A stretch of 64,000 nucleotides of DNA from Bacillota bacterium (GTDB lineage Bacteria; Bacillota; Clostridia; Peptostreptococcales; Anaerovoracaceae), in the NCBI GenBank assembly GCA_022787405.1, contig JALFXR010000046.1, forward strand, positions 2,365-66,364, given 5' to 3'. The position numbers and the translations under genes are program-made. Below are positions 31,832-56,778 of the stretch, piece after piece. Positions within the stretch are counted from its first letter, which is position 1, and every line of letters begins with the position of its first letter. The notes under the pieces are model-generated. The model worked only from the letters and a program-made list of their open reading frames with translations, did no database searches and had not been told where the DNA came from.

Positions 31832-31860
31832 TAAAAAAGACTGCCGGTTTAGACAGTCTT
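31832..31860 (-). terminator. Intrinsic terminator upstream of mobC
   Basis: Minus strand reads AAGACTGtctaaaccggCAGTCTTTTTT. Confidence 0.55.
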
Positions 31861-32626: not shown

Positions 32627-33034
32627 TCATCTTTCCATGTCTGTTCGTTCCTTAAGCTGGATAACACGAATACCCTTTATTGTCCTTTGAAATCTTTCAG
32701 GATATTTAAACCTTTCGGAATACTTTTTCTTCTGCTCCTCAGTTAAGCTTTCAAATCGGTCGCTGTCTGCCGGCGCTCTGCAAATAAAAAAGTCTCCTGC
32801 TATTATTTCAACAAGAGAACCTGAGCTGTCGTAAATTGCCCTGTTAAGCGGAAGTCCTATGAGTTTTCCCTCCTCATTGCATATAATGGCAGCATCATCA
32901 TCAAAAGGCATATATAGCTCAATCATTCCGCCAACTAGCTTTTGCTCACTTTCCAAAGAGTCCGTAATAGTCACTTCCTGCGGCCTCTGATTAGCTTTTA
33001 CAAGCAGAACATCCAGTTTTCTTTCTTCATTCAT
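32627..33034 (-). CDS. DUF3846 domain protein
   Basis: 135-aa ORF. VGGMIELYMPFDDDAAIICNEEGKLIGLPLNRAI...IIAGDFFIC matches the DUF3846 pattern. Overlaps the upstream gene by 4 nt. Confidence 0.6.
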   Translation of the reverse strand: MNEERKLDVLLVKANQRPQEVTITDSLESEQKLVGGMIELYMPFDDDAAIICNEEGKLIGLPLNRAIYDSSGSLVEIIAGDFFICRAPADSDRFESLTEEQKKKYSERFKYPERFQRTIKGIRVIQLKERTDMER

Positions 33035-33978: not shown

Positions 33979-33983
33979 TTTTT

Positions 33984-37900: not shown

Positions 37901-40900
37901 CTGTGCCTTTTCCAGAGCCTTGACGTTTTCAGTAAAATCATCCCCTCTGGCGGATGCTGCAAGCTTTGCTGTTTCTAGCTTTTCTCTCACATTTCCGGAC
38001 AGGTATTCATCAGCCGTAAGATACTTTTCCTCAGAGCTTTCCTCTTTCCAGTTTGGATTCATGAAAATAATACCCTTTAGTTCCTCAAAGATCTCTGCTT
38101 CTGTTTTCATGCAAAGCGACTCCATATAGGCCATGTCCACCCTTGCCTTTTCACCTATAGATACTCCCAGAGCCTCCACCGAGGTATCAACTCTGGTTGA
38201 CGGTTTATGTGAGCGTATGGTGCGCTTATAGAAAATATCCGCCTTCCTGTTTAAGCTGCCGTCATCATTTAGGATTTCAAGAGCAGAAAGCAGAAAATAT
38301 GAACTGTCATCAGAAAAGGCAGAGCTGTTCGCCCTGCCTGAGATTAAACCGTATTTCTTTGTAAAACTGTCATAAAGCTGATTCAGCTTTTTTTGCTCTG
38401 CCGCAATTTCTTCTTCGGGATAATCCTCTGACTGATAAGTTATAAGCATTTTCAGGCAGTCTCGGATTTGTATCATGCCTTTTATCCTGCTTTCGGCCGT
38501 AGAGGTAGTCTCCACCGGTTTCATTATGGAGTTCTCCCGGAAATAGATTTTTCCGTCTATCATAGCAAAGGAAAAGTTTTTTACCGAAGGGTCTGCGATG
38601 ATATATTCATTCTCCTCTTCGGCAAGCTCCTCTGCTCTTTCTGTTATCTGTGCATGAATGGATTTTACAGCATTGTCAAGCTGTATTGACAGCGGAATGC
38701 TTTCATCTGCTATGCAGCTGCTCTCTTGCCCGAACCGACCGCTTACCATTTCCATTTTGCCAAGTACCATTTCCGGATGCTGGATATAATACTGATTTAT
38801 CTGTATTCCATCATCATTAAGTCCCAGATGCAGCCACTCCGGCTCAATATCAATAATGCTTTCTCTCTTCTGAAGGAAGATAATATCTGAAGTTACCTCC
38901 GTTCCGGCGTTTTTAGTAAATGTATTGCTTGGAAGTCTGATGGCACCTATAAGGTCGGCTCTTTGTGCAATGTATTTTCTTACCTTTGAGTTTTCCTTAT
39001 CAAGAGTACCTTTGCTTGTCACAAATGCAATAATGCCTCCCGGTCTTACCTTATCAATGGTCTTAGCAAAGAAGTAATCGTGAATTAGAAAATTTTCCTT
39101 ATCGTAACGTTTGTCAGCAAGTCTGAAATCACCGAAGGGGATATTGCCTATGGCAACATCAAAGAAGCTGTCAGGAAGAGAAGTATTTTCATATCCTTCA
39201 ATGCTAATGCTGGCATTTTGATAAAGCTGCCTTGCAATCCGGCCTGATACAGAGTCCGCCTCAACACCATACAATTTACTCTTTTCAAAGTCTTCAGGAA
39301 GCATTCCAAAGAAATTTCCTATGCCGCAGGAGGGTTCAAGTATGTTACCCTCACTAAATCCTGATTGCTTTAGCACCTGATACATGGCCCGGATTACAAC
39401 AGGAGGTGTATAAAATGCCGTAAGGCATGACTGCCGGGCAGCAGCATATTCATCTTCGTCAAGAAGCTGCTTAAGCTGCATATACTCATTTGCCCAGCTG
39501 CTGTTTGATTCATCAAAAACCTCCGGCTGGCCGCCCCAGCCTGTGTAGTCCGCAAGTATCTCCTGTTCTTTCTCTGTGGCAAAGCGCTCCTTTTCATCAA
39601 GTGTTTTCAGAAGCCGGATTGCTTCAATGTTTCGCCTGAATTTTTCTTTCGGACTGCCTTCTCCATACGCATCGTCTGAAATACAGTATTGTATTCTATC
39701 TGCTCTCTTTATCTCAGGAAAAATATATTCTGCCGGCTTTTTCTCAGTAGGGAGCTCCCATGATGGTGTCAGGCTCTCGCTCTCGGATACTTGGACTTCT
39801 TCTTTTTCTTCTTCCTCTTTTTCTGATTCCTTCCCTGGCTCTTTCCTCAGGTGCTCGTTTCCCGGTGTTTCTGCAGCTTTTATATCAAACTCCTGCCGAT
39901 TCATGGTCTTATTTATCAGTGGGCAGGCGATGTCATAAAGCACCACTTCTTCATCATCAATAGCTAATATCTCATATTGCTGAGCGCCGATAAAGACTGA
40001 ATCTCCCAAGTGAAATTCATATTCGCCATATTGGGTTTGCTCTTTTGGCTTTGCCTCCGGCGGTGCTATGGAAAGAATTTCTTTGTTCTTCCGGTATTCT
40101 TCAATCTCCTTTCTGCAGATTGTTTCTTTCTCCAGCCATGCAGGATAATTTTCTGCTTCCTTTTTATTCAGATACCTTCCTATGCGAATCAGTTCCCTTA
40201 TTCTTTTCTCAACTTCTTGCCATTTAATCAAAATTTTCGGGCTGTCATTTCCATAGCCTTTGCTTAGCATAATTCCTTTCGGTGAGTGATCCTCGCCTAT
40301 TCCAAGGCCGGATTTTATCGGGTTCCTTCCACCTGTGCCGTACTCCTTTTTCAGAAATTCCACATTTTCTTTTTGTGACAGGCTTTTTTCAAACTGCTCA
40401 AAAATCCGATATTTCCCGTTTTCAAACCCGCTCCCCTTTGTGATTGCAACATCAATTACCTCCTGTGGGAAATCAGTCTCTTTTGCGGAATCAAAAGAAT
40501 CAAAGAATGCAGTCTGTTCCTCAACAGATGGTAAGGGTTCTGCAATGTCATACAGTTTATTGAGAATTCTCAGACTGTCAAAATGCTCTGAAACGACCTC
40601 CCAGTTATAATAGCCTTCTGCCGTTCTGTTAAGGTAACTCCCTTCCCAAAGGTGCAGCACATTCTGATATGTCTTATATCCGACCCGGCGTTCTCCGCTG
40701 ATGATCAGCTCTGTGTAATCGTTATTGAATATTTCTTTCAGATAAGCTACCCTTTCGGCTGTATCATCATGCATCTCAAAGAATTTTCGTATTTCTGAGT
40801 AGCTTGCTTTTAAATGCGGGGTGCTAAGCAGTATTTCGTGTATGTCACTGTCTTTACAAAAAAACGGGAGCTTGCTTTCTCCCGCTTTCCTGTCAAAATA

Positions 40901-42085: not shown

Positions 42086-42105
42086 TCTTGCTGCCTCCTT
42101 CCTTT

Positions 42106-45100
42106 TTACTCGTCTTTTTCTTTGCGTGAAACTGCTGCAATCATTCCGGTGAATGCGATGACAAGAAGCAGCATCAACTCATGCAATCTGTTCTTATCCC
42201 CTGTCTTTGGTACTTCTGATGGCTTTTGCGGTTTTTCCGGTGTCGGATCGATGATTTCTACAGTCTGATCAATATCATTAATGTCGGTGTGCTTTGCAAT
42301 AAGCTTTACGTCAAGGTAAAGTCTTTCGAAGACTACCAGCTTATGTCCGCCAAATCCGCTGCCATCAAAGGTAAACTTGATGGTTAAGCTTCCGTCTTTT
42401 GACTTTGGAGTAAAGGTTTTTTCAGCTATGACTTTCTTTCCATTAACAGTAATGGCTTTTCCGGTAGCTTTATCCATGATAGTACCCTTCATGGTATAGG
42501 TTTCTCCCGGGGTGAGATTATAGTAGCTTACAGTATCAACAATTGTAATTTTTTTAGCTGCTGCAATCTCCTTAGAACCGTCTGTACCTACAGCAGATGT
42601 TTTTATCATCGGTTCCGTGACTTTTTCATTCTCCACTTCAATTCTGGTAATCAGTCCAAGCATTGTCGTGTCAATCAAATGAAATTCGCTATCTGCTTTA
42701 TAGCCGTCAGGTGCCTTTACTTCACGATAGAAGAAAGTTCCTTTATGGTCTACAGAAATGGTAACAACACCATACTGACCTGTGATTACATTCTGCTCTA
42801 AAAGCTTTTTATCAGGAATAAGGGTAACGCCATCTTCGGCCAGCTTGCTTGACCAGATTTCAAACTCAGCTCCGGCAAGAGTCTCTCTTGTATCTTTATC
42901 TACTTTCTTGATTTCGATTTGATAAGAAAAACCGCCGCCCGGAGTATACGGAACAGCTTCGTTTTCAACAACGAATCTGTACTGAGGAAGACCTTTGATT
43001 ACTCTGAATCTGTGATAATCATAATCATCAGCCTTGTATCCTGAAGGAGCCTTTATCTCACGCCAGAAGTATGTGCCGTAATCAAGGACCAACGTAAAGG
43101 TTCCGTCAGCGCCTGTGGTGTAGGTTCCAAGAAGTTTGTCCGGTTCATAGGTCCATTCGCCGGAAGGTTTTGCAGAGTAGATTTCAAAGACTGCTCCTGA
43201 AAGCTTCTTTTCAGGGTCTTCCCTGTCAACCTTTACAAACTCAATTTCCGGCTTGTGGTCGTTTTCAACAGCAAAGCCGTCTCTGTTATCAGAGTTGATC
43301 TTTATCATCAGCTTGTCAGCTGAGGTGTCCTGTCTTGCCAGAGTGACATTCTTTGTGAATTCAAATGTCTGAGCCGTATCGAAGGCACCTGTTGAAGATA
43401 CTTCTGAATTAGCTGCATCTGTAAAGAGGCCCGAAAGCACATTTTCTATGGCTGCCGTGACCACTCCGTATTTATCCATGGATACGGTAACGTCTGCACC
43501 GGATGCTGTCTTAAGCTTTAAGGTATCCTTCGGATTAAGAATAATCTCGCCGGACGGGTCAAGCGTCTCCGTTACAGCAGTTGTGCCGGATATTCTCTCG
43601 TATGATGCTTCTATTACGTTTACGTCGGCAAAGTCTTTTACCGTAATAACAGCGCTGTGCTTGAATATCTGGTTTCCGCCTGGTGTCAGGTTTCCTGATT
43701 CTGTGGTCACAGTCTCATATCCCAGTTCAGGCTGAGCCGGGTCTATAAGCTGCTCCTTTGTGGTAACTGTCTTTGACGGCTGGTGAGTGATAACTGCCTT
43801 TAATATTAACGCTGTCTTGTCTGTTCCTGCGCCGGTAAGGGTAAACTCCGGTGTGTAGGTGATAAGGTCTTCACCTTTAGTCGGTGTCCAAAGCTCCTCA
43901 TAGCCTGCATAATATCCTGTGTAGGCTGCGGTAGGCGTAAAGGTTTCTGTTACACCGTCAACGGTGTAATCAAAGGTGTTTCCTGTTTCGCCGAGTTTAA
44001 CCTTAAGGGTCTTCCCGTTTGGCAAAATGATGTTTGTCTCAGCATCTGCGAAAGTATCAACGGTAACTTCCGTAAAGTCGGAATCAGCATCGATGCTTAC
44101 TCTTCCGTCTTCACTTGCAAAGTCGGTATCCAGAGGATATACGCTTCCGTCGATTGTAATAGACGGCATAGGAAGTCTTGACTCAACCATGATTGTTGTC
44201 TTCACATGGTTCTTTTCTTCAAGAACGAACCTTCCGTAAATACCGTCATTGATTGTATAGTCAAAAGCGGCATCCGATGAGTAATCAGCATCGTCTTCTC
44301 TTACTTCAAAGTTGAATCTTACGTCGCTCAGAAGATAGTCTTCCGGTCCTTCAAGCTCCCTGATGTAGTAGCTTCCTTCAGGAAGCTTTGCATCTGCAAG
44401 GACGCTTCCGCCTGTGGTGTAATCAACTGATATAACATCAATCAAAGTGTCAGCCTTGATAGTCTTCTCTGTGACTTCATGCTTTCCTACAGCTGTTGCT
44501 GTAATATCTTCTGCGGTGTAAAGACCGAACTTCACAGTCTGCCCTTCCTCCGGCGGCTGGTATGCATCCGATCTGAACGAAGTCTCAAAGACTTTTGAAA
44601 GGTCAATCTGAACGCTCATATACTCATTGTCAAAGGAAGCAGCTCCCCAGATAACAGGTGTGAACTGGTCTTTGTACTTAAGGGTTACAAGCTGCTCTTC
44701 ACTGTCATTTAAGTAGTTATCATCAGCTGATAATTCGCGGACGATGTAATCGCCGAGAGGGAGAAGACCGCTTGTAGCAATTCCGTCCTCATTTGTAGTA
44801 ATTACTTCGATGATGTCTGACTGAGTATAACGGTTTGTCTTATACACATTGTAAAGGTCAAGAACGCCTACATTATTTCCCGATGCAGCCTTTGCGCAGT
44901 AGATTGCCATAGTGTAGCCGTCTGCAAAGGTTATCTCAAGAGGAGCATCCTCCGTCTGATTGGTGACGATTTCAAGGTAGTACATTGTCTTGCCGCCTAC
45001 TGCGGTAGAGTCAACTCTTCTTGCAATTACACTTACTCCGTCAGCAAGTCCGTCTTTACTGTTAAACTCAATTACCGGATTCTCCGGTGAGAGCTTTGAA

Positions 45101-48100
45101 TACCAGTCTATGAGAAGCGGCTGCTTCTCGCCTTCTGAGTTGTAATGAATAAAGTTAAGTGTCGGAACTATGTTCTCATAGAGATGTCCCACTGCCGATT
45201 CCGGCATAGTAATCGTGGTATAGCAGGCTCCGCCTTTATAGTACATATCAGCCTTTGTTCCGTCAGCCCAAGCAAAATATATAGGAGCTGCAAATGGGAT
45301 TGTTCTGAATGTAATCTCCTGCGGAGCATTCTCATATTCGTAGCCTGCGCCAACATCAATGGTTTCTGCAGGACTTGGTATCTGCTTTGTGATGATGGTT
45401 GTGGCCACATTGGTATTCTGGTCTACAGTAGAGCCAAGAGCAAAACCGTCGAAATTAACAGTAAAGCCATCGGCATCACCCTTTTCCTGAGTGTAGACTG
45501 CTCTGTAGACCTGAACACGCATCTTTTCAAAGTTTCCGATAGGTGTGCATTCCTGCCAGCCCGCCAGATCAGAAAGTAGAACTCTGTAAACGGTTTCTCC
45601 GGTTTGGGCATCTGTCTGATAGATAATAACATACTGTGGGTCTTCCTTCGGATCACCTGTAAAGGTCTTTAAGGTCCAGCCTTCCGGTACTGTGTATTCC
45701 GGAAGTGCAGCACCTGTTTCATCACTGTCAATGAAAGCATAATCACTTCCGGCGCCGGTAAGAGATGTCTTATTTCCGGCGATGTAGCAGCCTGTCACCG
45801 CTGCCTTATATACATCAGCTGCTTCGCTCTTTAAAACTGCCTTTCCGCCGACAGTCTTTGGTGATATTAAAGTAAAGCCCTCGTTATCCCATTCGAACAT
45901 AGTCTTGGTTTCTTTAATGTCTTCGGTCTTGTAGGTTGGCGGTGTATCTTCCGGATCATCATAGTCACCGTCTCCGTTGGCATCGACTCCCGGAGTATCT
46001 ATAACCTGTCTTTCTCCCACCTTTCTTTCCTCGGTCTTTAAATCGTCCTTGGTCAGTTCGTAGTAGATATAGTCTTTTACGAGGTATCTTTCCGGACAAG
46101 GCTCTGAAAGGTCTATTTCGTTTCCGTCTGTAAAGATGTCCTTTTCTCCGTCAGCCTCAAAGACATATGTTTTCTTGTACACATCAAGTTCTGATACTGT
46201 TGTCCAATCAAACGGGTCACGAAGCGGCTTGGTGTAGCTCTGGATTTCCCCATTTGAATCATCAACAACCACATCACCTACGGTGCCGCTCATGTAAGTC
46301 ATCGGAATCTCGGAAACGCAGCCGGAAAGCGGCATCGTTGTCTTTGTCACATTGACATCTGTAACATTTCTTCCGCCTGCCTGGTTCTTAAGGATTACCT
46401 CAATATCATAGCGGTAGCTGTACTTATCGTCTGCAGTCGCATAGATATATGAGTATGTGGTGTCTTTCTGCTCAGGGGAAACATATATGGTTCTCTTCAT
46501 GTTTCCTTCTGAAGCTTCCCTCTCAAGCATATACCAAAGCTCTGCTCCCGATTTGTGTGAGTATGAGCCGGTTTCATAGTTTGCAGCATCGTATTCCTTT
46601 GGATTAAAGAGTTTGCCAAAGAAAGCCTTTACCTTTTCAATTGCATTGGAAAGGTGTGATGATTTTTCCTTTGGAATTGTTATCTTATCACCTGTCTCGG
46701 AATCGTAAATGGCCGGTCCTTCAGAACCGTCATTTAATGTCTCATCCTTTGCAGCGAAGATTCCAAAGACTGCATCCTTTAATTTTGCTGCTGTTTCAAA
46801 TACAGGGGTAAGAATTGTATATCCGTCCTTTTCCTCTTCCTTAAAGCCTACAAGGGCTTCTCCTGTTTTACTTATTTCGAGTTTACCTTTTACAGCATCG
46901 TTTAATACTGCAGCAATGCGGTAGTAGTTCCTGTACGGATGGTCTCCGCTGTCATAGGACGGGTCTGCATCCATTCTCTTGCTGTCAAAAGTAACGAGCT
47001 GGGAGAAATTACCGTCTTCGTGCATATCCTGCTGAGTAACGGTGAAGGTGTATCTGTTCACTACCATCTTGGCAAGTTCATCAAAGGTGTATTTATCCTT
47101 ATCCTGGTACTTCACCTTATTTCCGGCAGCATCGTAGATTGCTACAACATCTTCGTATTTGTGTCCGTCGCCGCTGTAGTAGTCACCGAACTTTCCGGTG
47201 TCTCCGAACTTAAAGACTCCTTCCTCAATATATCCGAAGTCGTGGTTTTTGCCAACGCCTGTTTCATCGTACTTACCTACGAAATATCCATCGGGAACCA
47301 GCCACTCGGATATTTCATATCTTCCGTAAGGCAGCTGATAAGGGATGGTAATTTCGCCGTTTTCAGAGAGCTCAAAGGCGTAGTTTGTACTCTTTGAGTT
47401 AATGCTTTCTGCGTTTGGAAGGAACCTGTTATATATGTTCTTTGCTACGGTCCCGCCCTCTCCGAACATTGCTCTGTTTTCTTCGTCAGTATAGTCAGGG
47501 TTTCCTTTGAAACGGATATATACCTTGGTTCCGGCAAGGGGAATCTTCTTTCCTGTTTCAGAGTCAACCTTTTCAATCTTTACGATGTTTTCCTTGATTT
47601 TATCTCTCAGGTTCACATCATATCTGTTGTTATAGTAGTCGCCGGTGCCGTTTGACTTGGCACCGATTGGATTTGTTCCTGCTGTGCCGTATCCGGAATA
47701 AAGTCCTTCATCGGGAACTGCGCCCTTAGAGCCGTACATTACATTAGCACCGCTTGCTCCATTATGTTCTGATACAACTACAGTGCACTTTTCAAGAACA
47801 TATTTCGGATTATCTGCTTTTACCTCTGTTAATTCATACCTGCCATACGGAAGGTCTTTAATGAGAATCTGGCCGTTGGTACCGACCTTCATTCCAAGGC
47901 CGCCGTTAAGTGTGTTGTTTGGAATTCCTGATCCTCTTGATACAGTGTACTGATGGGTACCGCCCTCAAGGACTGTCGGAGTTGCTGACTGAAGGTGTGC
48001 ATATTCTACACCTTCCAAGCCGTCCATAAGCTTTATTGTCCAGTAAGAATCTATTGAGATGTTGCTTTTGTCGCCACCCATGGCAGAGTCTTTAAACGGA

Positions 48101-49986
48101 TTCTCCTGCTCATTGGATTTGATAATGAGGACATCGCCTCTGAACTCATCATCCACAAAGGTTTCAAGGTCATAGTCGAGGATGTTCTTAACAGCAGCTT
48201 TTGTTCCCGTAGAAGTAAAGCTGCTGCCATCACCTTTGGTCGCTGACCATTCAAATTTGTAATTTACTTCAGTCCACGGAGCCGATTCGCATTCGTATGT
48301 GCAGTTATCCTTAGCATCTGCGTGATATTTAAATGTGTATTCTCTTACGCCTCCGTATGGGTCAGGATTAATATACCTGCCGTCAGGTCTTGTTTCGGTG
48401 ATTCTATACTGCACCGTAACATCCCATGTTCTTGACTTTTCCTTATTTCCGCAGTGCTTCACAAGACCCGGTGGGTCATTTCCGTCCGGCACCATATGGT
48501 CAGGTGTCATGGTCTTCGTAAGGTATGCATCAAGGTCTGATTTAGTCAAGAAAGGTCTGTCCTCAAAGACATACTCTGAGCCGTAATCATCGAGAGTTAC
48601 TGTGCTGATGGTCTGCCAGCCCTCGCCTCCGATATTTCTTTCAAGAGTGAAGGTTGCATCAAGGCCTGCACCGCCAAGTGGAGTGTGGCTGTCTCCGTCC
48701 CATCCGGTATTTGCATCTATCTTTTCGATAGGCATTTTGATTGTCGGGAAAACTTCCACATCAGGAGGTGTGCAGTCGCCCTCTTCTTCTTTCGGGTCAG
48801 GTCCGTCTAAAACAAGCCATCCTGATACCGGATCGTTAAGTCCCGATACGAAAGCCTGAGTATGGCCTGTCTTGGTTGCGTGTTCCCAGATGTATCTCTT
48901 GTACTCGGAACCATTAGGACCATTCAAGTATTTTTCTGCTCTTTCGGCGATAGCATCCTTATGTTTTATCTCGAGAGTCTTTCCAAGAAGCGACTTGTCG
49001 GTAATGGTGATGATGTACTTGCCGTCCTTCTTGGTAGCCCCTTCTACATATTCAATCTTTATTCCGTCTAAATCATCACCGTTTTTATTGACAGCTTTGT
49101 ATTCGCCCTGGTATGACCCTGCCGATATTTCCTTTATGATTGTATCTGCCGCTTTTTCCTCTTCTGTAAGAAGTATGGTCTGAGGTTCATTCTTAAAGGA
49201 GCCTGCAATGCTTCTGTCAAGGTTTGATCTTTCCTTAATCTTCGATGCCATGAAGTTATATATGTCCATAGCAGGAGTTCCCCAGAGGTTCTTTGAGTAA
49301 TGCTCCTTTGGGATGAGATCCGTGTAAACGCCTGTCTTATATCCGGTTTCAAATCTAAGACCATTCTCACTTCTTTCGAAGTTTTCATCTCTGAACAATT
49401 GCTGGCATTCCCATATGAGCATCTGTGATGCTGCGTACCAGTCTGACTTTTTGTATGTTGTGTTCGGGTCCTTGTACTTAGAATCGGCAAATCCCATATC
49501 GTTAAGTTCCTTTACGCCTACACTTCCGTCAACAGGAGCCAGCATCAAAACATTTAAAATGTTTTTGATTGGATACGGATCGTCGCCTCCTGAATGAAGA
49601 GCATTCTGATATGCGTAGTATATAGGTGACTTTGCATATCCGTGCTTGTATAGTGTTGTAGACTTATGAGATACGCCGTGTTCAACGCAGTAAACTAAAA
49701 AGCCTCCAGCCTTATACATCTTTATGGGCTGCTTGGCCTCAGAGCAGCTTCCATCGTCTCTTAAGCGTGCATCCTCTGCTCTCATTCCGGCTTTGTAATC
49801 TGCCCACCATATCTGCAGGTACCTTCCGGATTTAAAAGTGTAACTGCCCAGGTTTTCCTCTGTAAGGGTATATCCGCTTGCAGCCTCTGCTGTTTCAGCC
49901 ATATCTAGGCACGGCACGGAAGTAAAGACGATGGTAATGGCCATCGCCAATGTCAGGATTTTTTCACCTAGTTTCTTAAAATTCAT
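42106..49986 (-). CDS. Giant LPXTG-like anchored adhesin with candidate N-terminal thioester domain and many Cna-B/SpaA-type repeats
   Basis: 2626-aa ORF with a signal peptide. Candidate thioester Cys in FLVYCVEHG and Gln in AASQMLIWE. Repeated motifs such as GAVFEIYS...GTYTTGADGTFTL..YGTYFWREIKAPSGYK. C-terminal VPKTG, then a hydrophobic helix, then RKEKDE. Confidence 0.85.
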   Translation of the reverse strand: MNFKKLGEKILTLAMAITIVFTSVPCLDMAETAEAASGYTLTEENLGSYTFKSGRYLQIWWADYKAGMRAEDARLRDDGSCSEAKQPIKMYKAGGFLVYCVEHGVSHKSTTLYKHGYAKSPIYYAYQNALHSGGDDPYPIKNILNVLMLAPVDGSVGVKELNDMGFADSKYKDPNTTYKKSDWYAASQMLIWECQQLFRDENFERSENGLRFETGYKTGVYTDLIPKEHYSKNLWGTPAMDIYNFMASKIKERSNLDRSIAGSFKNEPQTILLTEEEKAADTIIKEISAGSYQGEYKAVNKNGDDLDGIKIEYVEGATKKDGKYIITITDKSLLGKTLEIKHKDAIAERAEKYLNGPNGSEYKRYIWEHATKTGHTQAFVSGLNDPVSGWLVLDGPDPKEEEGDCTPPDVEVFPTIKMPIEKIDANTGWDGDSHTPLGGAGLDATFTLERNIGGEGWQTISTVTLDDYGSEYVFEDRPFLTKSDLDAYLTKTMTPDHMVPDGNDPPGLVKHCGNKEKSRTWDVTVQYRITETRPDGRYINPDPYGGVREYTFKYHADAKDNCTYECESAPWTEVNYKFEWSATKGDGSSFTSTGTKAAVKNILDYDLETFVDDEFRGDVLIIKSNEQENPFKDSAMGGDKSNISIDSYWTIKLMDGLEGVEYAHLQSATPTVLEGGTHQYTVSRGSGIPNNTLNGGLGMKVGTNGQILIKDLPYGRYELTEVKADNPKYVLEKCTVVVSEHNGASGANVMYGSKGAVPDEGLYSGYGTAGTNPIGAKSNGTGDYYNNRYDVNLRDKIKENIVKIEKVDSETGKKIPLAGTKVYIRFKGNPDYTDEENRAMFGEGGTVAKNIYNRFLPNAESINSKSTNYAFELSENGEITIPYQLPYGRYEISEWLVPDGYFVGKYDETGVGKNHDFGYIEEGVFKFGDTGKFGDYYSGDGHKYEDVVAIYDAAGNKVKYQDKDKYTFDELAKMVVNRYTFTVTQQDMHEDGNFSQLVTFDSKRMDADPSYDSGDHPYRNYYRIAAVLNDAVKGKLEISKTGEALVGFKEEEKDGYTILTPVFETAAKLKDAVFGIFAAKDETLNDGSEGPAIYDSETGDKITIPKEKSSHLSNAIEKVKAFFGKLFNPKEYDAANYETGSYSHKSGAELWYMLEREASEGNMKRTIYVSPEQKDTTYSYIYATADDKYSYRYDIEVILKNQAGGRNVTDVNVTKTTMPLSGCVSEIPMTYMSGTVGDVVVDDSNGEIQSYTKPLRDPFDWTTVSELDVYKKTYVFEADGEKDIFTDGNEIDLSEPCPERYLVKDYIYYELTKDDLKTEERKVGERQVIDTPGVDANGDGDYDDPEDTPPTYKTEDIKETKTMFEWDNEGFTLISPKTVGGKAVLKSEAADVYKAAVTGCYIAGNKTSLTGAGSDYAFIDSDETGAALPEYTVPEGWTLKTFTGDPKEDPQYVIIYQTDAQTGETVYRVLLSDLAGWQECTPIGNFEKMRVQVYRAVYTQEKGDADGFTVNFDGFALGSTVDQNTNVATTIITKQIPSPAETIDVGAGYEYENAPQEITFRTIPFAAPIYFAWADGTKADMYYKGGACYTTITMPESAVGHLYENIVPTLNFIHYNSEGEKQPLLIDWYSKLSPENPVIEFNSKDGLADGVSVIARRVDSTAVGGKTMYYLEIVTNQTEDAPLEITFADGYTMAIYCAKAASGNNVGVLDLYNVYKTNRYTQSDIIEVITTNEDGIATSGLLPLGDYIVRELSADDNYLNDSEEQLVTLKYKDQFTPVIWGAASFDNEYMSVQIDLSKVFETSFRSDAYQPPEEGQTVKFGLYTAEDITATAVGKHEVTEKTIKADTLIDVISVDYTTGGSVLADAKLPEGSYYIRELEGPEDYLLSDVRFNFEVREDDADYSSDAAFDYTINDGIYGRFVLEEKNHVKTTIMVESRLPMPSITIDGSVYPLDTDFASEDGRVSIDADSDFTEVTVDTFADAETNIILPNGKTLKVKLGETGNTFDYTVDGVTETFTPTAAYTGYYAGYEELWTPTKGEDLITYTPEFTLTGAGTDKTALILKAVITHQPSKTVTTKEQLIDPAQPELGYETVTTESGNLTPGGNQIFKHSAVITVKDFADVNVIEASYERISGTTAVTETLDPSGEIILNPKDTLKLKTASGADVTVSMDKYGVVTAAIENVLSGLFTDAANSEVSSTGAFDTAQTFEFTKNVTLARQDTSADKLMIKINSDNRDGFAVENDHKPEIEFVKVDREDPEKKLSGAVFEIYSAKPSGEWTYEPDKLLGTYTTGADGTFTLVLDYGTYFWREIKAPSGYKADDYDYHRFRVIKGLPQYRFVVENEAVPYTPGGGFSYQIEIKKVDKDTRETLAGAEFEIWSSKLAEDGVTLIPDKKLLEQNVITGQYGVVTISVDHKGTFFYREVKAPDGYKADSEFHLIDTTMLGLITRIEVENEKVTEPMIKTSAVGTDGSKEIAAAKKITIVDTVSYYNLTPGETYTMKGTIMDKATGKAITVNGKKVIAEKTFTPKSKDGSLTIKFTFDGSGFGGHKLVVFERLYLDVKLIAKHTDINDIDQTVEIIDPTPEKPQKPSEVPKTGDKNRLHELMLLLVIAFTGMIAAVSRKEKDE

Positions 49987-52414: not shown

Positions 52415-53314
52415 CTACCTTTCATGTGTTTTTTCTTTTCTCCTGCGGTCGAGTTCAGCTGCTTCTTCCTGAACTGCCTCTTCCAGCGCCTCATAATCGC
52501 TCATTCCATACTTATCAGCCTTTCTACGCATTTCGGCAGATATTCTTGAAATCGTTTTGTCTGACTTGAGTATAGAATTAATTCCTATACCATTTTGAGC
52601 CTTAAATTCAAGACGCTTTTCCTTATCTTTGTGAAGGTCGCTCAAAAAATTTCTAACATAGCTTTCATCCCAAATCCGCTGCTGCTCGAAGAAAGCTGTG
52701 GAAAGCTCATCTCTGGTTAAAGGTATCTCCATCTTCTTACCATTAACCTCCCTGGATATTTTCAAAGAAGAATAGTCCTCGTCTTTATCATCCGGCAGTC
52801 TGATTTCAGGAAGCTCTGATTCATTGATTTTATTCAGATCGTTTTCACTATCATCAAAAAGATGTTCATATCCATAGCTTCTCATGCTTATATAACCATG
52901 CTCAGCGCAGATTATATGGTCCACCACGGGTATCGCTAATACTCTTCCACAAACAGCAATACGTTCTGTAGTCTTGATATCTTCTTCACTTGGTGACAGA
53001 TTGCCGCTTGGGTGATTATGAAGAAGCATGATGCATGCAGCGGAACTAAGCACAGCACTTTTGAAGACTTCCCTGGGGTGTACCAATGTACTTGTCAGTT
53101 CTCCAATACTTGTTATGCTGGCACTCAGCGGCAGCCCTTTTGGGTTCAGATGCAGCACACAGAAAACCTCTCTGTCGTACTCGCCCAATTCTTTGCTCAG
53201 AAGTGCCACTGCATCTGAACTGCAGGCAATCTCCTTTTCACTATACAGCTTTCGCTCTGGCACAAGCCTGACGCCTACCATATCAAACTCTTTTTTACTT
53301 CTTGCTTCCATCAA
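52415..53314 (-). CDS. radC: RadC-like JAB/MPN domain protein with C-terminal extension
   Basis: 299-aa ORF. JAMM motif LLHNHPSGNLSPSEEDIKTTERI. Confidence 0.8.
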   Translation of the reverse strand: MMEARSKKEFDMVGVRLVPERKLYSEKEIACSSDAVALLSKELGEYDREVFCVLHLNPKGLPLSASITSIGELTSTLVHPREVFKSAVLSSAACIMLLHNHPSGNLSPSEEDIKTTERIAVCGRVLAIPVVDHIICAEHGYISMRSYGYEHLFDDSENDLNKINESELPEIRLPDDKDEDYSSLKISREVNGKKMEIPLTRDELSTAFFEQQRIWDESYVRNFLSDLHKDKEKRLEFKAQNGIGINSILKSDKTISRISAEMRRKADKYGMSDYEALEEAVQEEAAELDRRRKEKTHER

Positions 53315-53492
53315 ACCTTACCGAAAGCCTTTCCCCTATTTTCATAGTGCTAAGTGCAAGATGTAGGTCTTTACTGTCCACCTCTCTTACCTTTTCCTTT
53401 GGCTGCTCTACAAATTCGATCAATAAAGTGTTGTTGCTTTTAAGGTCTTTTAATAAAAAATCCATTCCCTTGTTCACTGCTCTCTTTTTCAT
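53295..53492 (-). CDS. Small hypothetical protein
   Basis: 65-aa ORF overlapping the radC-like start. No motif. Confidence 0.3.
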   Translation of the reverse strand: MKKRAVNKGMDFLLKDLKSNNTLLIEFVEQPKEKVREVDSKDLHLALSTMKIGERLSVRFDGSKK

Positions 53493-53608
53493 TTTCTGCG
53501 TCCCTTTCTCCGTATCTTACGGGCTTTTTCTTAATTAAGATTTAAAATAATATACTATTTTCGGCATACCGAAGAAAGAATGTCTTTTGTTTTTCGGTAG
53601 GCTAATTA

Positions 53609-54562
53609 TTATCTTGTAAGTGTTTGTGTTTGTTTTTGTTTTTCCTGAACCTTTGCATAATACTCCAGTGCCTTTATGATATACTCCTCTCTCCCCTTCA
53701 GCGGAATATTGGGAGGAATGAACCTGCTTATGCGCTCCTCTCGCAATACGATTTTTTCCTTCTGGTTCGGTTTTTCTTCCTGCATTATAGCCAATATGGA
53801 ATCGACGGACAGCTTGTCCATATCTAAAAACTTTCGCATTTTCTTCGCCTGTGCATATGATGGAGTGCAATCCTCCATTTCCATTGCGTTAAGGAGTTCT
53901 TCCTGAAGCTCTTTTGGGATATATGATATTTCAACAGCTGGTGTCATCGCCATTTTCCCCTCGTCTACACGCTTTAGGAGTTCAGGAATTAGATATGTCA
54001 AACGAATATATCTTCGTACCTGGTCTTGGCTTTCACCCACTTCTTCTGCAAGTTTTTGTCTTGACTTTTTCCCATCCAACTTGTGTGCAGATTGCACACA
54101 AGTTAAATCTGTTCTCATACCCTGCCTTTTCATTGCTTCAAGTTTCATCTTAAACGCAAAGGCTTTTTCACTCGGCAAGAGATTTTCTCTCTGCATATTG
54201 CTGTCTACCATGATTATAGTGGATTCATCGTCAGACAGCGTTCTTACTATGCAAGGTATCTCTTCTCTTCCTGCCAAACCGCTTGCAAATTTTCTTCTGT
54301 GCCCGGCAATCATTTCATAACCGCCGCTTTCTTTTGGTCTGACGAGTGCCGGAACCAATACACCGTTTTGCTTAATACTCTCAACCAGCCTTTCCATCTC
54401 ATTATCCATGCTTACATGGAAAGGGTGATTTGGGAAATCGCTTATCTCATCTAATCTCAAGTCTACTATCTTTTCCCTGCCGTTATCTTCCCTCTGCTGC
54501 TGGGTACTGAACAAATCATCTATCGAGGCCAGTGGAATCTCTAAACTTTTCTTTTTCGCCAT
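53609..54562 (-). CDS. parB: ParB/Spo0J-family partition protein
   Basis: 317-aa ORF. ParB-N motifs LVRPKESGGYEMIAGHRRKFA and an HTH region. Overlaps parA. Confidence 0.85.
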   Translation of the reverse strand: MAKKKSLEIPLASIDDLFSTQQQREDNGREKIVDLRLDEISDFPNHPFHVSMDNEMERLVESIKQNGVLVPALVRPKESGGYEMIAGHRRKFASGLAGREEIPCIVRTLSDDESTIIMVDSNMQRENLLPSEKAFAFKMKLEAMKRQGMRTDLTCVQSAHKLDGKKSRQKLAEEVGESQDQVRRYIRLTYLIPELLKRVDEGKMAMTPAVEISYIPKELQEELLNAMEMEDCTPSYAQAKKMRKFLDMDKLSVDSILAIMQEEKPNQKEKIVLREERISRFIPPNIPLKGREEYIIKALEYYAKVQEKQKQTQTLTR

Positions 54563-55343
54563 TTTTCAATACCTCCTTTGCAAACTTTCTATAGGCTTCC
54601 GACACCGTGCTTTTCGGGTCATACTCAAATATGCTTTCGCCTTGTGACGGCGATTCTGCGGTCGAAACCGCCACCGGTATTTCTGTTTTAAACATATTTA
54701 TTTTACTTCCATACGAACTCTGAATAGTTTTCTTTATTTCCTTTGCCAGATTCGTTCTGCTATCAACAAGGGTAAGAAGAATTCCGCTTATTCTCAGATT
54801 GGGGTTTGTATTTCTTTGTACCCTGCCTATGGTTTTAAGAAGTTGTGTCATTCCCTTTGCCGGGAGAAAATGTGCCTGAACAGGAATGATGACTTTGTCT
54901 GCAGCAGTTAAAGCATTTATTGTAATCATTCCAAGAGACGGCATACAGTCTATTATTACATAGTCATAGTTTTCTTTAATCTTATCGATGTATAGACTTA
55001 ATATCCTTTCCCTGCTCATGGCATTTACAAGATTAACTTCCATTGCTGACAAATCAAGATTAGATGGGACCAAATCAACTCCTTCTTTCTGATGAAGAAT
55101 TCCATCATTGCTTTCAATCGGTTCGTCCTGCATAATTTTTCTCATTACATCAGCAAGTGTCACATCCAGACTCTCTCCGTCAAAGTATCCAAGATATGTT
55201 GTCAAGTCGCCCTGTGGGTCTGCGTCTATCAGGAGTACCTTTTTCCCTTCCTTAGCAAGTCCTACTCCTAAATTTACTGCCGTCGTAGTTTTCCCTACTC
55301 CGCCTTTCTGGTTGCATATTGCTATTATCTCTGCTTTTTTCAT
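54516..55343 (-). CDS. parA: ParA/Soj-family ATPase
   Basis: 275-aa ORF. Deviant Walker A is NQKGGVGKTTTAVNLG, and a second motif is VLLIDADPQG. Confidence 0.9.
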   Translation of the reverse strand: MKKAEIIAICNQKGGVGKTTTAVNLGVGLAKEGKKVLLIDADPQGDLTTYLGYFDGESLDVTLADVMRKIMQDEPIESNDGILHQKEGVDLVPSNLDLSAMEVNLVNAMSRERILSLYIDKIKENYDYVIIDCMPSLGMITINALTAADKVIIPVQAHFLPAKGMTQLLKTIGRVQRNTNPNLRISGILLTLVDSRTNLAKEIKKTIQSSYGSKINMFKTEIPVAVSTAESPSQGESIFEYDPKSTVSEAYRKFAKEVLKNGEKEKFRDSTGLDR

Positions 55344-55478
55344 TTGCTGTCACCTCTCTCATATTTAAGAATGGCGGAGAGGTCTTTCTCCGCCTATGTA
55401 ATCATTTGTTTGAATCGTTGAAAATTCAATATTTACAGGCATTTAACTTATACACCAGCAGAATCTGTTGTAATTATT

Positions 55479-55634
55479 ACCTCTACACATAAGGATGTTA
55501 CGGAAAGGCTCCTCGAAATCAATCCGGGGCTGGCTTCCGAAGTAAAGGACGTTCTGGAAAACAACAAAGCGGAGCGCCACCTTCGCGGCGGGATGGCTAC
55601 CAGAGAAAAATATCAGCATGCGAAAGAAAAATAA
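55479..55634 (+). pseudogene. spoIIID: 3' fragment of sporulation regulator gene spoIIID (no start codon; 5' half absent from the window)
   Basis: Reads ..STHKDVTERLLEINPGLASEVKDVLENNKAERHLRGGMATREKYQHAKEK*. Compare B. subtilis SpoIIID STVHKDLTERLPEINPDLANEVKEILDYHKSIRHLRGGEATKLKY. Upstream in frame there is a stop at ~55419, no start and no similarity. Confidence 0.75.
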
Positions 55635-55662
55635 CGGCCCAACGGGTCGTTTTTTTACTTGC
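55634..55662 (+). terminator. Intrinsic terminator after the spoIIID fragment
   Basis: ACGGCCCaacGGGTCGT followed by TTTTTT. Confidence 0.6.
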
Positions 55663-55755
55663 TAAAGGCCATATACAGGTACTATAATTAAGGTATAAAA
55701 TATATGGTTCCGGCAGAATGATAAAAACGATTCACGTAACGAGGAGGATGAAAAG

Positions 55756-56778
55756 ATGATTTATTTCAGAAGCGACTATAGCCTTGGCGCCCACCCGAAG
55801 GTAATGCAGGCTCTTATGGATACAAATATGGAGCATACAGACGGTTATGCCGAGGACAGGTTTTCTTACGAAACTGCAGATATGATCCGCGAAATGATTG
55901 GCAAGCCTGACGCTCACGTTCATTTCATGGTAGGCGGCACCCCGACCAATACCATCACCATTGCAGCAGCACTCAGACCTTACGAGGGAGTCATCTCACC
56001 AGCCACAGGTCATATCTATGTTCACGAAACCGGTTCTGTAGAAGCAAACGGTCACAGAGTTTTCGCCGCTCCTACAGAGGACGGCAAGCTCACTCCTGAA
56101 GCAATAGAGAAGGTTCTCCTTCACCACGAAGACGAGCACACAGTTATCCCAAAGATGGCCTACATAACCCACCCGACGGAAAACGGCGGCGTTTACACTA
56201 AAGCTGAACTTACAGCTCTCAGCGAGTGCTGCAAAAAACACGGACTTTATCTCTACATGGACGGTGCACGACTGGGCACTGCTCTTACATGGCCGGGCAA
56301 CGACCTTTCACTTAAGGACATCGCCAACCTGGTAGACGCATTCTACATTGGCGGCACCAAAATCGGTGCCCTCTTCGGCGAAGCCCTTATTATCATGAAC
56401 GATAACATGAACGATCATTTCCGCTATATGGTAAAGCGTGCCTGCGCTTTGCTGGCAAAAGGCAGACTCATCGCCATCCAGCTCAAGGCTCTCCTCGAAG
56501 GCGGCGAAGATTCACTTTACTATGAACTTTCACGTCATGAAAACGAACTGGCTATCAAGCTTTCCAAGGGTGTTGTGGAAAAAGGCTACGAGCTCTGGAT
56601 TCCTCATCAGACCAACCAGGTCTTCGTAATTGTCGATAACGACAAGATTAAGGAACTGGAAAAGGACTTCTTCTTCTACACATGGTGTCCTTACGACGAA
56701 ACCCGTTCAGTAATCAGACTGGTTATCAGCTGGGGCTCCACTGAGGAAGACGTGGACGCTATTTTGGCAGCACTGTAA
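55756..56778 (+). CDS. ltaE: Low-specificity threonine aldolase family (PLP-dependent beta-eliminating lyase fold)
   Basis: 340-aa ORF. FRSDYSLGAHPKVMQAL..., GGTPTNTI, and the PLP-lysine region YIGGTKIGALFGEAL. Confidence 0.8.
   Translation: MIYFRSDYSLGAHPKVMQALMDTNMEHTDGYAEDRFSYETADMIREMIGKPDAHVHFMVGGTPTNTITIAAALRPYEGVISPATGHIYVHETGSVEANGHRVFAAPTEDGKLTPEAIEKVLLHHEDEHTVIPKMAYITHPTENGGVYTKAELTALSECCKKHGLYLYMDGARLGTALTWPGNDLSLKDIANLVDAFYIGGTKIGALFGEALIIMNDNMNDHFRYMVKRACALLAKGRLIAIQLKALLEGGEDSLYYELSRHENELAIKLSKGVVEKGYELWIPHQTNQVFVIVDNDKIKELEKDFFFYTWCPYDETRSVIRLVISWGSTEEDVDAILAAL

Follow-up and report, generated by a model that had tools for sequence, protein, structure and literature searches.

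The ICE and the half gene at its right end

The window, that is, the whole 64,000-nucleotide stretch of DNA analysed here, holds the right 55.5 kb of what is, as predicted from its genes, a ∼62-kb integrative and conjugative element (ICE). A cargo region (1-17690, minus strand) was delimited by Pfam assignments and by continuity with another copy of the element, L012; the element runs on for ∼6.4 kb beyond base 1. It encodes a partial PQQ/fn3 protein, a transglutaminase (1460-3382), a DUF58 protein, a MoxR AAA+ ATPase (4350-5282), a DUF4430 protein, a 1953-aa protein (6751-12612), an HNH-repeat protein, SseB, a GDSL lipase and, on the plus strand, a LysR regulator (16792-17688). Pfam matches likewise define a conjugation and DNA-processing module (17691-34922, minus strand). 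Its genes specify a CHAP hydrolase (17691-18698), a VirB4/TraG-like ATPase (20272-22617), PrgI (22505-22933), a VirD4-type coupling protein (26532-28334), a DUF3801 protein, a MobA/VirD2 relaxase (30116-31483), a NikA/MobC protein (31474-31818), a DUF3846 protein, a DUF3991-Toprim primase (33031-33978) and a DUF5688 protein. Mating functions thereby occur together in one element (Pfam Relaxase, T4SS-DNA_transf/TraG-D_C, P-loop_TraG/AAA_10, PrgI and CHAP). Two giant genes follow (34919-49986, minus strand; Pfam), one for a 2388-aa SNF2 helicase with an Eco57I-like methylase (34919-42085, minus strand) and one for a 2626-aa surface adhesin with SpaA and TQ ester-bond domains (42106-49986, minus strand). 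The right end is made up of maintenance genes (52415-55343, minus strand; Pfam) for RadC (52415-53314), ParB (53609-54562) and ParA (54516-55343), the last being the final ICE gene before the right attachment site, attR.

Between the start of parA and attR, the ICE contains the hairpin and the palindrome that a first-pass annotation of the sequence had pointed out. The hairpin, GGCGGAGA-ggtctt-TCTCCGCC (55373-55394), has an 8-bp stem of 100% complementarity and a 6-nt loop, with a fold of -16 kcal/mol and a z-score of -3.9. The palindrome, TTGAAAATTCAA (55418-55429), includes the in-frame TGA (55419-55421) at which the spoIIID frame is closed on its upstream side. The plus-strand frame from 55344 reads ...LNR*KFNIYRHLTYTPAESVVIITSTHKDVTERLLEINPGLASEVKDVLENNKAERHLRGGMATREKYQHAKEK*, with no ATG, GTG or TTG start between this TGA and the SpoIIID-like part. 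The start-less fragment behind an in-frame stop that had been described is therefore real, and the spoIIID 3′ part at attR has neither a start codon nor a promoter. It comprises codons 38-85 (His38 to Lys85) and a TAA stop (55488-55634, plus strand; stop codon 55632-55634), and so the earlier estimate of ∼49 C-terminal residues becomes 48 codons. The terminator said to follow is also present as a predicted intrinsic terminator with a stem and T-run (55633-55658, plus strand), which lies in host DNA and is the same in empty-site alleles. The fragment aligns to residues 35-80 of B. subtilis SpoIIID (PDB 2l0k; E=6e-14) and covers positions 36-79 of the 80 in NCBIfam TIGR02844, where its 71.2 bits stay below the equivalog cut-off of 111.5 for full-length SpoIIID (TIGR02844 / PF12116, ∼85-93 aa). 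To its right, the first host gene encodes a threonine-aldolase-like PLP enzyme (55756-56778, plus strand), which served as an anchor for finding empty sites.

Empty sites, attachment sites and the left end

Metagenome contigs of the same species (L001-L007, L010) carry an intact 85-aa spoIIID at this locus and lack the element, which bears out the earlier proposal that a conjugative element is inserted in the gene. The intact allele of L001 scores 134 bits and passes the TIGR02844 cut-off of 111.5. From base 55487 rightwards, the empty-site contigs and the window have 100% identical DNA; leftwards they show no similarity, in keeping with the abrupt onset of SpoIIID similarity that had been reported. 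Among contigs of the host species, intact SpoIIID protein was found on 225 and the ICE ParA on 53. The junction of the ICE right end with spoIIID was seen in at least nine independent assemblies and in a second species, and an identical ParA adjoins spoIIID 3′ halves in at least nine other assemblies. At least five different host spoIIID alleles are found joined to one and the same ICE end; nine alleles of the same host clade differ only synonymously (5-15 synonymous and 0 nonsynonymous differences). At the level of sequence, an identical right end in at least five alleles and a second species is evidence of horizontal transfer of the predicted ICE. Because copies of the ICE are nearly identical across diverged hosts, the insertions are recent, and intact gene halves are for that reason no proof of selection for reconstitution.

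The 5′ half of spoIIID is absent from the window by tblastn, as are the genes of the empty-site left flank (MatE, VanY, Lys_export). It had been placed, together with the recombinase, beyond the left edge of the window, and both were found there in other copies of the element. About 6.4 kb past that edge, copies of 98.5% identity have the gene for a large serine recombinase (LSR) abutting spoIIID codons 1-37. L012, which is 98.5% identical to window positions 1-11805, continues to the recombinase and the left attachment site, attL, with the gene order LSR, spoIIID 5′ half, MatE, VanY, the last three corresponding to what lies to the left at the empty site. At attL of L131-L133, the flanking sequence agrees fully with L001 as far as ...AGTCTACAGTACA. 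Immediately before attL in L012 and in L131-L133 lies the LSR, the type of integrase that had been predicted. It is directed outwards, antisense into spoIIID codons 37-1, and leaves the sigmaE-type promoter of spoIIID intact at attL, beside codons 1-37. Recombinase P0153 (NCBI MCI7619575.1), which is probably from the same metagenome-assembled genome (MAG) as the window, ends in YCRLADAEFFGGSSDR, the tail predicted from the antisense of the host spoIIID 5′ half. The first-pass annotation had listed, as a possible refutation, an intact second spoIIID elsewhere together with the lack of a matching 5′ fragment; the matching 5′ fragment is there.

An ICE left end at ∼17.7 kb, where the conjugation genes end, was considered and rejected, because L012 links the cargo to the recombinase and attL. 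The earlier minimum of 38 kb holds for the ICE, although it represents the conjugation genes alone and the whole element is ∼62 kb. The LSR is the only integrase found in the element.

Alignment with uninterrupted relatives, the comparison originally suggested, defined attL, attR and the crossover. The crossover is a 2-bp CA (55488-55489, plus strand), the first two bases of the His38 codon, and is common to attB, attL, attR and the inferred attP, TTACCTCTACA-CA-TATAGTCGTAACAG. The split thus falls inside KSTVHKD, the recognition-helix segment of SpoIIID. In L021, attL and attR differ on both sides of the CA, and in L126 the host base following it is C and not T. The P arm of attR, on the ICE side, reads ...GCAGAATCTGTTGTAATTATTACCTCTACA (55458-55487, plus strand) by comparison with intact alleles. 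Quasi-palindromic attP arms, and a CA bracketed by differences between host and element, suggest a 2-bp crossover of the LSR type. Joining attL to attR in silico at the common CA gives the empty-site allele base for base, and excision would therefore restore spoIIID exactly. The recombinase ORF itself crosses the attachment site, so that its C-terminus would differ between the integrated and excised forms. At attR, a minus-strand ORF (55443..55619) ends ...MCRGNNYNRFCWCIS; in the excised form, the minus strand from 55487 to 55446, closed by the stop at 55445-55443, would supply the recombinase with another C-terminus, CRGNNYNRFCWCIS.

The recombinase clade and its small gene

The LSR scores above the cut-offs for PF00239, PF07508 and PF13408 (resolvase, Recombinase and zinc ribbon), and its N-terminus reads YCRVST. 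In the PDB, it matches a conjugative-transposon recombinase fragment (3g13) and SprA best. Relatives occur in 409 species-representative genomes. Among the best 80 of these 409, 75 have a spoIIID 3′ half immediately after the recombinase gene, and 73 of the 75 loci show CAY-AAR-GAY at the junction. Hosts of the clade are Lachnospiraceae, Oscillospiraceae and relatives, and its carriers include ICEs, 5-7-kb Rep_trans elements and contigs from virus catalogues. Carriers in culture include Pseudoflavonifractor capillosus ATCC 29799, Clostridium sp. Marseille-P3244, Angelakisella massiliensis and Blautia ammoniilytica (loci L054, L045, L067, L095). Three loci (L053, L039, L111) appeared to have a full-length spoIIID behind the recombinase, with an element-borne replacement 5′ half. 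That reading was discarded, because the additional aligned stretch is of low complexity, falls in the +1 frame of the recombinase 3′ end and lacks the helix-turn-helix part.

Nearly all clade members have a conserved gene of 45-60 aa upstream of the recombinase. That of the window's ICE encodes 47 aa (L012 17943-18086) and has homologues in 76 loci; its product has no Pfam, NCBIfam or PDB match and is inferred to be a candidate recombination directionality factor (RDF). A bipartite motif, (A/C)TA-N16-CATA, stands 57-70 nt before the small ORF in 54 of 62 distinct upstream regions, against a background of ∼1% per interval of that kind. Its blocks are conserved (70% pairwise identity) and its spacer is not (41%). 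A regular-expression scan with strict sigmaE/sigmaK patterns gave no match in the recombination module or the ICE right end; the motif emerged from looser patterns and then from clade-wide comparison. A sigma70_r4 protein and a PemK toxin also adjoin the recombination module.

The motif resembles a mother-cell promoter of the sigmaE-like kind. The sigmaE consensus is kmATAww-N14-CATACAhT, for which the backing in these data comes from the hosts' own spoIIID promoters. These have the same architecture as the motif (TTATAAA-N14-CATATATT and GTATATA-N14-CATACAAT), and the window's ICE has TCATATT-N14-CATAAAAT. Most clade members have CTA and not ATA at -35, and CATAG and not CATAC at -10. In C. 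difficile, the sigmaE promoter of spoIIID is ATA-N16-CATATATA (PMC3789822).

Developmental excision or disruption of spoIIID

We lean, by a little, towards a reversible gene-intervening element of the skin and SPbeta kind that is excised in the mother cell under sigmaE, with the small ORF supplying the RDF. Once sigmaE is active in the mother cell, the small ORF would be transcribed from its sigmaE-like promoter; its product, together with the LSR, would excise the element. spoIIID would then be restored and expressed from its own sigmaE promoter, allowing sporulation to proceed, and the integrated copy would stay in the forespore. Excision of this kind is favoured because the clade is spread across genomes at spoIIID and has a conserved small gene behind a sigmaE-like motif. 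[quoted passage not shown] On the other side, LSRs of the transposon type, TndX and TnpX among them, need no directionality factor for excision, and the host, a gut Clostridia MAG, may belong to the Anaerovoracaceae, whose cultured members are described as non-spore-forming. Extended to the whole clade, the proposal would make the His38 codon a dedicated attachment site in hundreds of species of gut Clostridia, each with a small sigmaE-driven RDF, and would make SpoIIID in the mother cell dependent on excision. We hold this extension tentatively, as not quite an even bet.

Plain disruption is a substantial minority possibility. spoIIID would then be merely a conserved landing site that is dispensable for vegetative growth, its carriers would be sporulation-deficient or oligosporogenous, and excision would be rare, serving conjugation and controlled by the element itself, not by sporulation. 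The target is the most conserved stretch of the gene across spore-forming Clostridia, as befits a broad-host-range integrase, and the ICE ParA occupies a minority of host contigs (53, compared with 225 for intact SpoIIID), as expected of an accessory element that could be mildly deleterious. Disruption is also in line with the recent insertions, in which diverged host alleles carry one identical ICE end, and with the empty result of the strict sigmaE/sigmaK scan of the recombination module. Gut Clostridia are thought to pass from host to host as spores, which speaks against it. Loss of SpoIIID cuts C. difficile spore yield ∼3000-fold, although the spoIIID mutant still sporulates to some extent (3e2 versus 9e5 per ml; PMC3789822), so that carriers would not be fully sterile, a point in favour of disruption. 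A loss of that size is hard to square with relatives in 409 genomes, nearly all of the best 80 of which are split at spoIIID. Disruption further leaves the conserved CATA-type motif before the conserved small ORF unexplained, and for other elements splitting mother-cell sporulation genes that have been tested (skin, SPbeta, vfbin, gin and yin), excision takes place during sporulation or depends on growth phase.

Excision might instead have two triggers, sporulation in the mother cell and an ICE-specific signal in vegetative cells that leads to conjugation. This refines mother-cell excision and is hardly a true rival to it; we regard it as rather unlikely, with no second promoter or regulator identified. 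The predicted conjugation module is complete and the element has moved between hosts, from which it follows that it must also excise outside the terminal mother cell. There is a precedent in SPbeta, whose sprB has both a stress-inducible and a sigmaE/K promoter (PMC4191935, PMC6957869). The last explanation, a decayed fragment unconnected with the ICE end, as the first-pass annotation had allowed, or a chimeric assembly, is already refuted even though the window apparently comes from a MAG, a kind of assembly whose contigs may be chimeric: the fragment matches intact alleles at 100% identity, its junction recurs in at least nine independent assemblies and a second species, and the reciprocal attL breaks at the same dinucleotide.

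Mother-cell excision, the reading we prefer, has its closest parallel in the skin element of Clostridioides difficile (sigK; CD1231 and CD1234). There, a constitutive LSR is paired with a small, sigmaE-dependent RDF without database similarity, and the small protein limits excision to the mother cell (PMC5025042). The present element shares with skin an LSR at the edge, a split mother-cell regulator gene and a small protein without database similarity, whose ORF here lies behind a sigmaE-like motif. Whereas skin splits sigK, the gene split here is spoIIID, a regulator upstream of sigK. With spoIIID itself as the target, control cannot depend on SpoIIID, unlike that of CD1234 and of B. subtilis spoIVCA. 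Skin is, moreover, a defective prophage with known excision; ours is a ∼62-kb ICE, predicted to be self-transmissible and known from its sequence, with a distantly related recombinase. SPbeta in spsM (SprA/SprB) and gin in gerE (GirC/GirX) are further intervening elements in which an LSR and an RDF rebuild a mother-cell gene precisely; of the two, SPbeta remains mobile and gin is no prophage (PMC4191935, PMC5595907, PMC6957869). They differ in host class, target gene and mobility (phage particles or unknown, as opposed to predicted conjugation), and here the recombinase ORF crosses the attachment site.

For elements interrupting spoIIID itself, the literature yields only a one-line mention by Galperin et al. 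2022 (bioRxiv 10.1101/2022.02.25.481979, Table S3), who list a 'skin-like element' in Ruminiclostridium cellulolyticum. That element resembles ours in its target gene and SpoIVCA-like recombinase, and its host is a known spore-former; the single sentence gives no attachment sites, element type, recombinase clade, distribution or regulation. The large group of mobile elements in gut Clostridia that insert into spoIIID is apparently undescribed. Tn5397 (TndX), Tn4451 (TnpX) and Tn1549-like elements are likewise elements of Clostridia, conjugative or mobilisable, for which LSRs carry out integration and excision, and they share the MobA/VirD2 relaxase, VirD4-type coupling protein, VirB4, PrgI and CHAP proteins assigned here by Pfam. 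For Tn1549 itself, the integrase is a tyrosine enzyme. As transposases, TndX and TnpX have multiple targets, in contrast to the clade described here, which is strictly site-specific for one codon of one gene; TndX-like enzymes fall in a multi-targeting clade (Durrant et al., PMC10083194).

SpoIIID switches the mother cell from the sigmaE to the sigmaK programme. Suppose that hundreds of gut Clostridia species have a mobile element in this gene. If the elements are excised developmentally, they would form a large unrecognised class that includes self-transmissible ICEs and acts one step earlier than skin; alternatively, gut commensals would often owe a loss or reduction of sporulation, and with it a change in transmission, to mobile elements. 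In both cases, reading sporulation capacity from genomes is affected, because a split spoIIID looks absent. Should the clade-wide extension be true, it would represent a novel developmental rearrangement of DNA, very widespread and placed before skin in the cascade, in which the first mother-cell-specific transcription factor is made only after excision of an element. The doomed mother cell might then release a conjugation-competent circle, and many predictions of sporulation ability from genomes would wrongly have scored spoIIID as missing or as a pseudogene.

As a resource, the clade offers a strictly site-specific serine integrase family whose 2-bp crossover is defined, along with natural attB variants and two LSR subfamilies of opposite integration orientation. 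In samples SRR18323990 and ERZ27280876, contigs break at the junction; SRR19633749 is among the samples positive for the ICE. JGI metagenome contigs gave 0 matches to attP and 0 to an ICE-arm control, as expected of a collection without the element. Pairing of attP arms by 20-nt identity, with one member per subfamily, was ambiguous (23/40 versus 21/40). A position weight matrix built on 72 arms showed the recombinase-proximal arms of the two subfamilies to be homologous.

Junctions in spoIIID and extent of the ICE

Translation of the plus strand over 55344-55700 gives a TGA at 55419-55421 and then TSTHKDVTERLLEINPGLASEVKDVLENNKAERHLRGGMATREKYQHAKEK, which ends at a TAA (55632-55634) and is followed by a T-run stem-loop at 55633-55658. 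The peptide aligns with residues 35-80 of B. subtilis SpoIIID (PDB 2l0k; E=6e-14) and covers positions 36-79 of the 80-position NCBIfam equivalog TIGR02844. No start codon lies between the in-frame TGA and the onset of SpoIIID similarity, the hairpin and palindrome are where the first-pass annotation put them (55373-55394 and 55418-55429), and the whole 64-kb window yielded no copy of the spoIIID 5′ half. Its observation of a start-less spoIIID 3′ half at the ICE end is confirmed.

To find uninterrupted sites, public assemblies were queried with the exact protein encoded by the adjacent host gene (55756-56778). Same-species contigs (L001-L007, L010) carry an intact 85-aa spoIIID directly upstream of this gene, and its product passes the SpoIIID equivalog cut-off (134 bits versus 111.5). 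Aligned with them, the window is 100% identical in DNA from 55487 to the aldolase gene and unrelated leftwards; the left-flank genes of the empty site (MatE, VanY, Lys_export and an ABC transporter) are absent from the window. Two contigs, L008 and L009, start at or just after the junction, which is the assembly-graph outcome expected when empty and occupied versions coexist in one sample. In another contig, L120 (~3860-3990), an N run directly after the attR core (…CTCTACACATAA-NNN) is a further sign of assemblers breaking at this junction.

The left end was reached by a look-up of the transglutaminase protein, which led to L012, a contig 98.5% identical to window 1-11805 that extends beyond the window's left edge. 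Leftwards, L012 encodes a PQQ/fn3 protein, DUF4430, an fn3 protein, a sigma70_r4 protein, a PemK toxin, a small ORF and a 575-aa large serine recombinase (LSR) with Resolvase, Recombinase and Zn_ribbon domains. As had been predicted, the spoIIID 5′ half adjoins this recombinase, on the opposite strand; beyond it come MatE and VanY, which also flank the empty site on its left. Because coordinate mapping via L012 places attL ~6.45 kb left of window base 1, the element measures ~62 kb. The earlier lower bound of 38 kb is thus exceeded, and the reading of an ICE inserted in spoIIID is supported at this corrected size.

Within codons 1-37 of spoIIID, 13 synonymous and 3 nonsynonymous substitutions separate the L012 host from the window host; the LSR tail of the window host was therefore predicted from the antisense strand of L001. 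The predicted tail was found exactly in P0153, a 564-aa recombinase ending in YCRLADAEFFGGSSDR (NCBI MCI7619575.1, from a ‘Firmicutes bacterium’ MAG, numbered near the accessions of the window's proteins, MCI7618212-MCI7618230). In window orientation, its contigs (L131-L133) read MatE start, TTATAAA-N14-CATATATT, spoIIID codons 1-37, CA and TATAGTCGTAACAG..., and equal L001 in sequence up to the junction.

The att sites and crossover could be defined from alignments of empty and occupied sites, as the first-pass annotation had proposed. The empty attB reads ...GCAAGTCTACAGTA-CA-TAAGGATGTTACGG..., attL ...GCAAGTCTACAGTA-CA-TATAGTCGTAACAG..., attR (window 55488-55489) ...ATTATTACCTCTACA-CA-TAAGGATGTTACGG... 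and the inferred attP ...ATTATTACCTCTACA-CA-TATAGTCGTAACAG.... That the crossover is confined to CA follows from two contigs. L021 contains both ends of a related element, whose attL and attR differ from the very next base on each side of the dinucleotide; in L126 an identical ICE end meets the host His codon CAC, and the base following CA is that of the host. Joining at CA in silico gives ...AGT ACA GTA CAT AAG GAT..., or S-T-V-H-K-D. The cut falls in the recognition helix of the SpoIIID solution structure; neither half alone is therefore expected to function.

Two further features straddle these junctions. The LSR ORF runs across the att site, so that the final 14-27 residues vary with whether the element is integrated or excised (window 55443-55487, minus strand; L012 19832-19916): integrated, the tail is spoIIID antisense, YCRLADAEFFGGSSDR, and after excision it would become CRGNNYNRFCWCIS, encoded in the window's ICE arm. 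On the minus strand at 55473-55501, sigma-70-like hexamers (GTAACA-17-AATAAT) directed into parA span attR, the -35 belonging to the host and the -10 to the ICE arm; the match is weak (9/12) and may have arisen by chance.

A recombinase clade directed at spoIIID

A protein search with the LSR returned 7755 matches. In close relatives (68-100% identity), the tail is a spoIIID 5′ half translated from the antisense strand. Another group, far larger and at 59-66% identity, shows three C-terminal patterns: an end in ...T-stop, where ACA TAA borrows CAT-AAG of spoIIID and the host supplies the stop TAA; out-of-frame read-through into spoIIID (T-Q-G...); and in-frame fusions to SpoIIID residues 37-84 (P0111, P0112, P0116). 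Fusion ORFs occur in one group of small elements (L021 10001-11722; also L022-L024 and L098), the product being a 573-aa protein with both LSR domains and Pfam PF12116. Context look-ups placed one recombinase, P0049, beside the spoIIID 3′ halves of several hosts, and P0112 in a 6.4-kb Rep_trans element with both spoIIID halves on one contig.

With each species represented by one genome, LSR relatives turned up in 409 genomes. Among the best 80 loci, the spoIIID 3′ half lies directly downstream on the same strand in 75, with CAY-AAR-GAY at the junction in 73 of these; the other five comprise one antisense 5′ half, two truncated contigs and two located elsewhere. Hosts include Lachnospiraceae (Roseburia, Blautia, Agathobacter and Acetatifactor among them) and Oscillospiraceae (Pseudoflavonifractor capillosus ATCC 29799, Angelakisella and others). 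The IMG/VR virus catalogue contains a few clade members, one of them (L116) with an apparent attP. A few members lie away from spoIIID: L038 (7440-7760, Christensenella sp.), where unrelated GC-rich DNA follows the recombinase, L073 (7440-7760) and L116 (11440-11640). The junctions of L073 (ACA-TATGGAAG) and L116 (ACA-TACAGTAGTTATAATATGG) resemble attP and look like excised or circularly assembled copies.

The ICE itself has several hosts. Its exact ParA protein occurs in 115 blocks of the assembly collection. At nine of the ten places listed, the ICE end meets same-clade spoIIID 3′ halves at an identical base position, and these halves show 5-15 synonymous and 0 nonsynonymous differences from the window; the tenth, L126, is another species. 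The ICE end is invariant across these places; the integrations are therefore independent and recent, and the gene they enter is under strong purifying selection.

The two subfamilies differ in orientation. In the large one, the recombinase gene sits at the attR end in the sense direction, whereas in that of the window it sits at the attL end, antisense. For the large subfamily, 72 recombinase-proximal arms were combined into a weight matrix, with the consensus TCGTAACGAC CATA, then CA. The recombinase-proximal arm of the window's ICE (CTGTTACGACTATA, then TG) scores +4.1, a value reached by 0.09% of random 14-mers; its ParA-side arm (TTATTACCTCTACA) scores -6.2, reached by 1.8%. From these scores we infer that both subfamilies arrange attP in the same way with respect to the recombinase gene and that the central dinucleotide is complemented. 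Complementing the central dinucleotide of a serine integrase flips the direction of integration, and such a flip would account for the two orientations.

Proposed excision during sporulation

Elements of this kind are already known, since interruptions are reported for sigK, spoVFB (given as spoIVFB in PMC6957869), spoVR, spsM, gerE, kamA and yabG (PMC4191935, PMC5595907, PMC6957869, PMC10747680), and one sentence in Galperin et al. mentions a skin-like element interrupting Ruminiclostridium cellulolyticum spoIIID (bioRxiv 10.1101/2022.02.25.481979). That sentence is the only mention of an interrupted spoIIID that the literature searches turned up; the serine recombinase survey of Durrant et al. 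(PMC10083194) discusses target genes, and spoIIID is absent from its text. What appears to be new is a natural ICE as a sporulation-gene intervening element, the att sites and 2-bp crossover in spoIIID, the size, host range and two orientations of the spoIIID-specific clade, and a conserved small ORF with a promoter-like motif.

In almost every clade member, this 45-60-aa ORF precedes the recombinase gene on the same strand (L012 17881-18086; homologues in 76 loci). Its protein motif is KRKLNYRFHNPN..TADYILKIxIEAN..KVE.AI, in the window's ICE MTKKGNQYYIYDPNPNKDTSGELIKIIAEVAARKVKEKL..., and it has no match in Pfam, NCBIfam or PDB. Directly upstream of the small ORF and recombinase is the gene for a PemK/MazF-type toxin (L012 17522-17875; L128 9333-9686), with no obvious antitoxin gene ahead of it; the toxin may aid element stability.

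In 54 of 62 distinct sequences, (A/C)TA-N16-CATA stands 57-70 nt before the small ORF (chance expectation ~1% per region). Its blocks are conserved (aGg.cTAttT, TCATAG.atTGgA) and its spacer is fixed in length and poorly conserved; the window's ICE has TCATATT-N14-CATAAAAT. The promoters of spoIIID in the hosts share this architecture (TTATAAA-N14-CATATATT; GTATATA-N14-CATACAAT). In C. difficile, the sigmaE promoter mapped for spoIIID reads ATA-N16-CATATATA (PMC3789822). These host promoters are of textbook sigmaE type (L001 9561-9621; upstream of the 5′ halves in L021, L097, L098 and L108). Downstream of each lies a box containing TAACAA, similar to KRTAACARK, the reported consensus for SpoIIID binding in C. 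difficile; this similarity suggests autoregulation.

[quoted passage not shown] By this analogy, sigmaE in the mother cell would switch on the small protein, the recombinase would join attL and attR to restore spoIIID, spoIIID would be transcribed from its untouched sigmaE promoter, and the element would be retained in the forespore. Most clade members, with CTA and CATAG, depart from the textbook consensus, and a scan for strict sigmaE/sigmaK patterns in the recombination module and the ICE right end was negative. On balance we favour, by a modest degree, a developmentally excised intervening ICE as the best mechanism. That carriers simply sporulate poorly, with no developmental excision, is a serious though somewhat less probable alternative.

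Genes and cargo of the ICE

By Pfam annotation, the ICE genes in the window lie nearly all on the minus strand and include no integrase. ParA, ParB and RadC (52415-55343) are followed leftwards by a 2626-aa adhesin with SpaA and TQ ester-bond domains (42106-49986), a 2388-aa SNF2 helicase with a methylase (Eco57I-like region; 34919-42085), and a stretch (17691-34922) encoding primase, NikA/MobC, MobA/VirD2 relaxase, VirD4-type coupling protein, PrgI, VirB4-like ATPase and CHAP hydrolase. Defence-like genes lie inside the conjugation module (18736-20196, 24566-26029 and 34919-42085): a Schlafen/AlbA_2-HATPase_c_4-wHTH protein, an AAA_21 (AbiEii-type) ATPase and the SNF2 helicase.

The cargo (1-17690) comprises LysR, GDSL lipase, SseB, a 1953-aa protein, DUF4430, MoxR, DUF58 and transglutaminase. 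The 1953-aa protein (6751-12612), without a Pfam match, is with the adhesin one of two giant surface-type proteins; ~11805-12495 within its gene cannot be aligned to the otherwise near-identical L012 copy. The MoxR AAA+ ATPase/DUF58/transglutaminase cluster occupies 1460-5282, and copies of the transglutaminase with 100% protein identity occur across many metagenome contigs (L011-L020). The cargo comes in at least two forms (L011 17181-21923 and L128 1-8602, versus L012 and L131). In the longer, ~13 kb of additional DNA separates the sigma70_r4 gene from the PemK/recombinase module and encodes an Fe repressor, FeoAB, an HMA protein, ABC/FtsX, AraC, BAAT, a methyltransferase, a flavodoxin and two ABC exporters.
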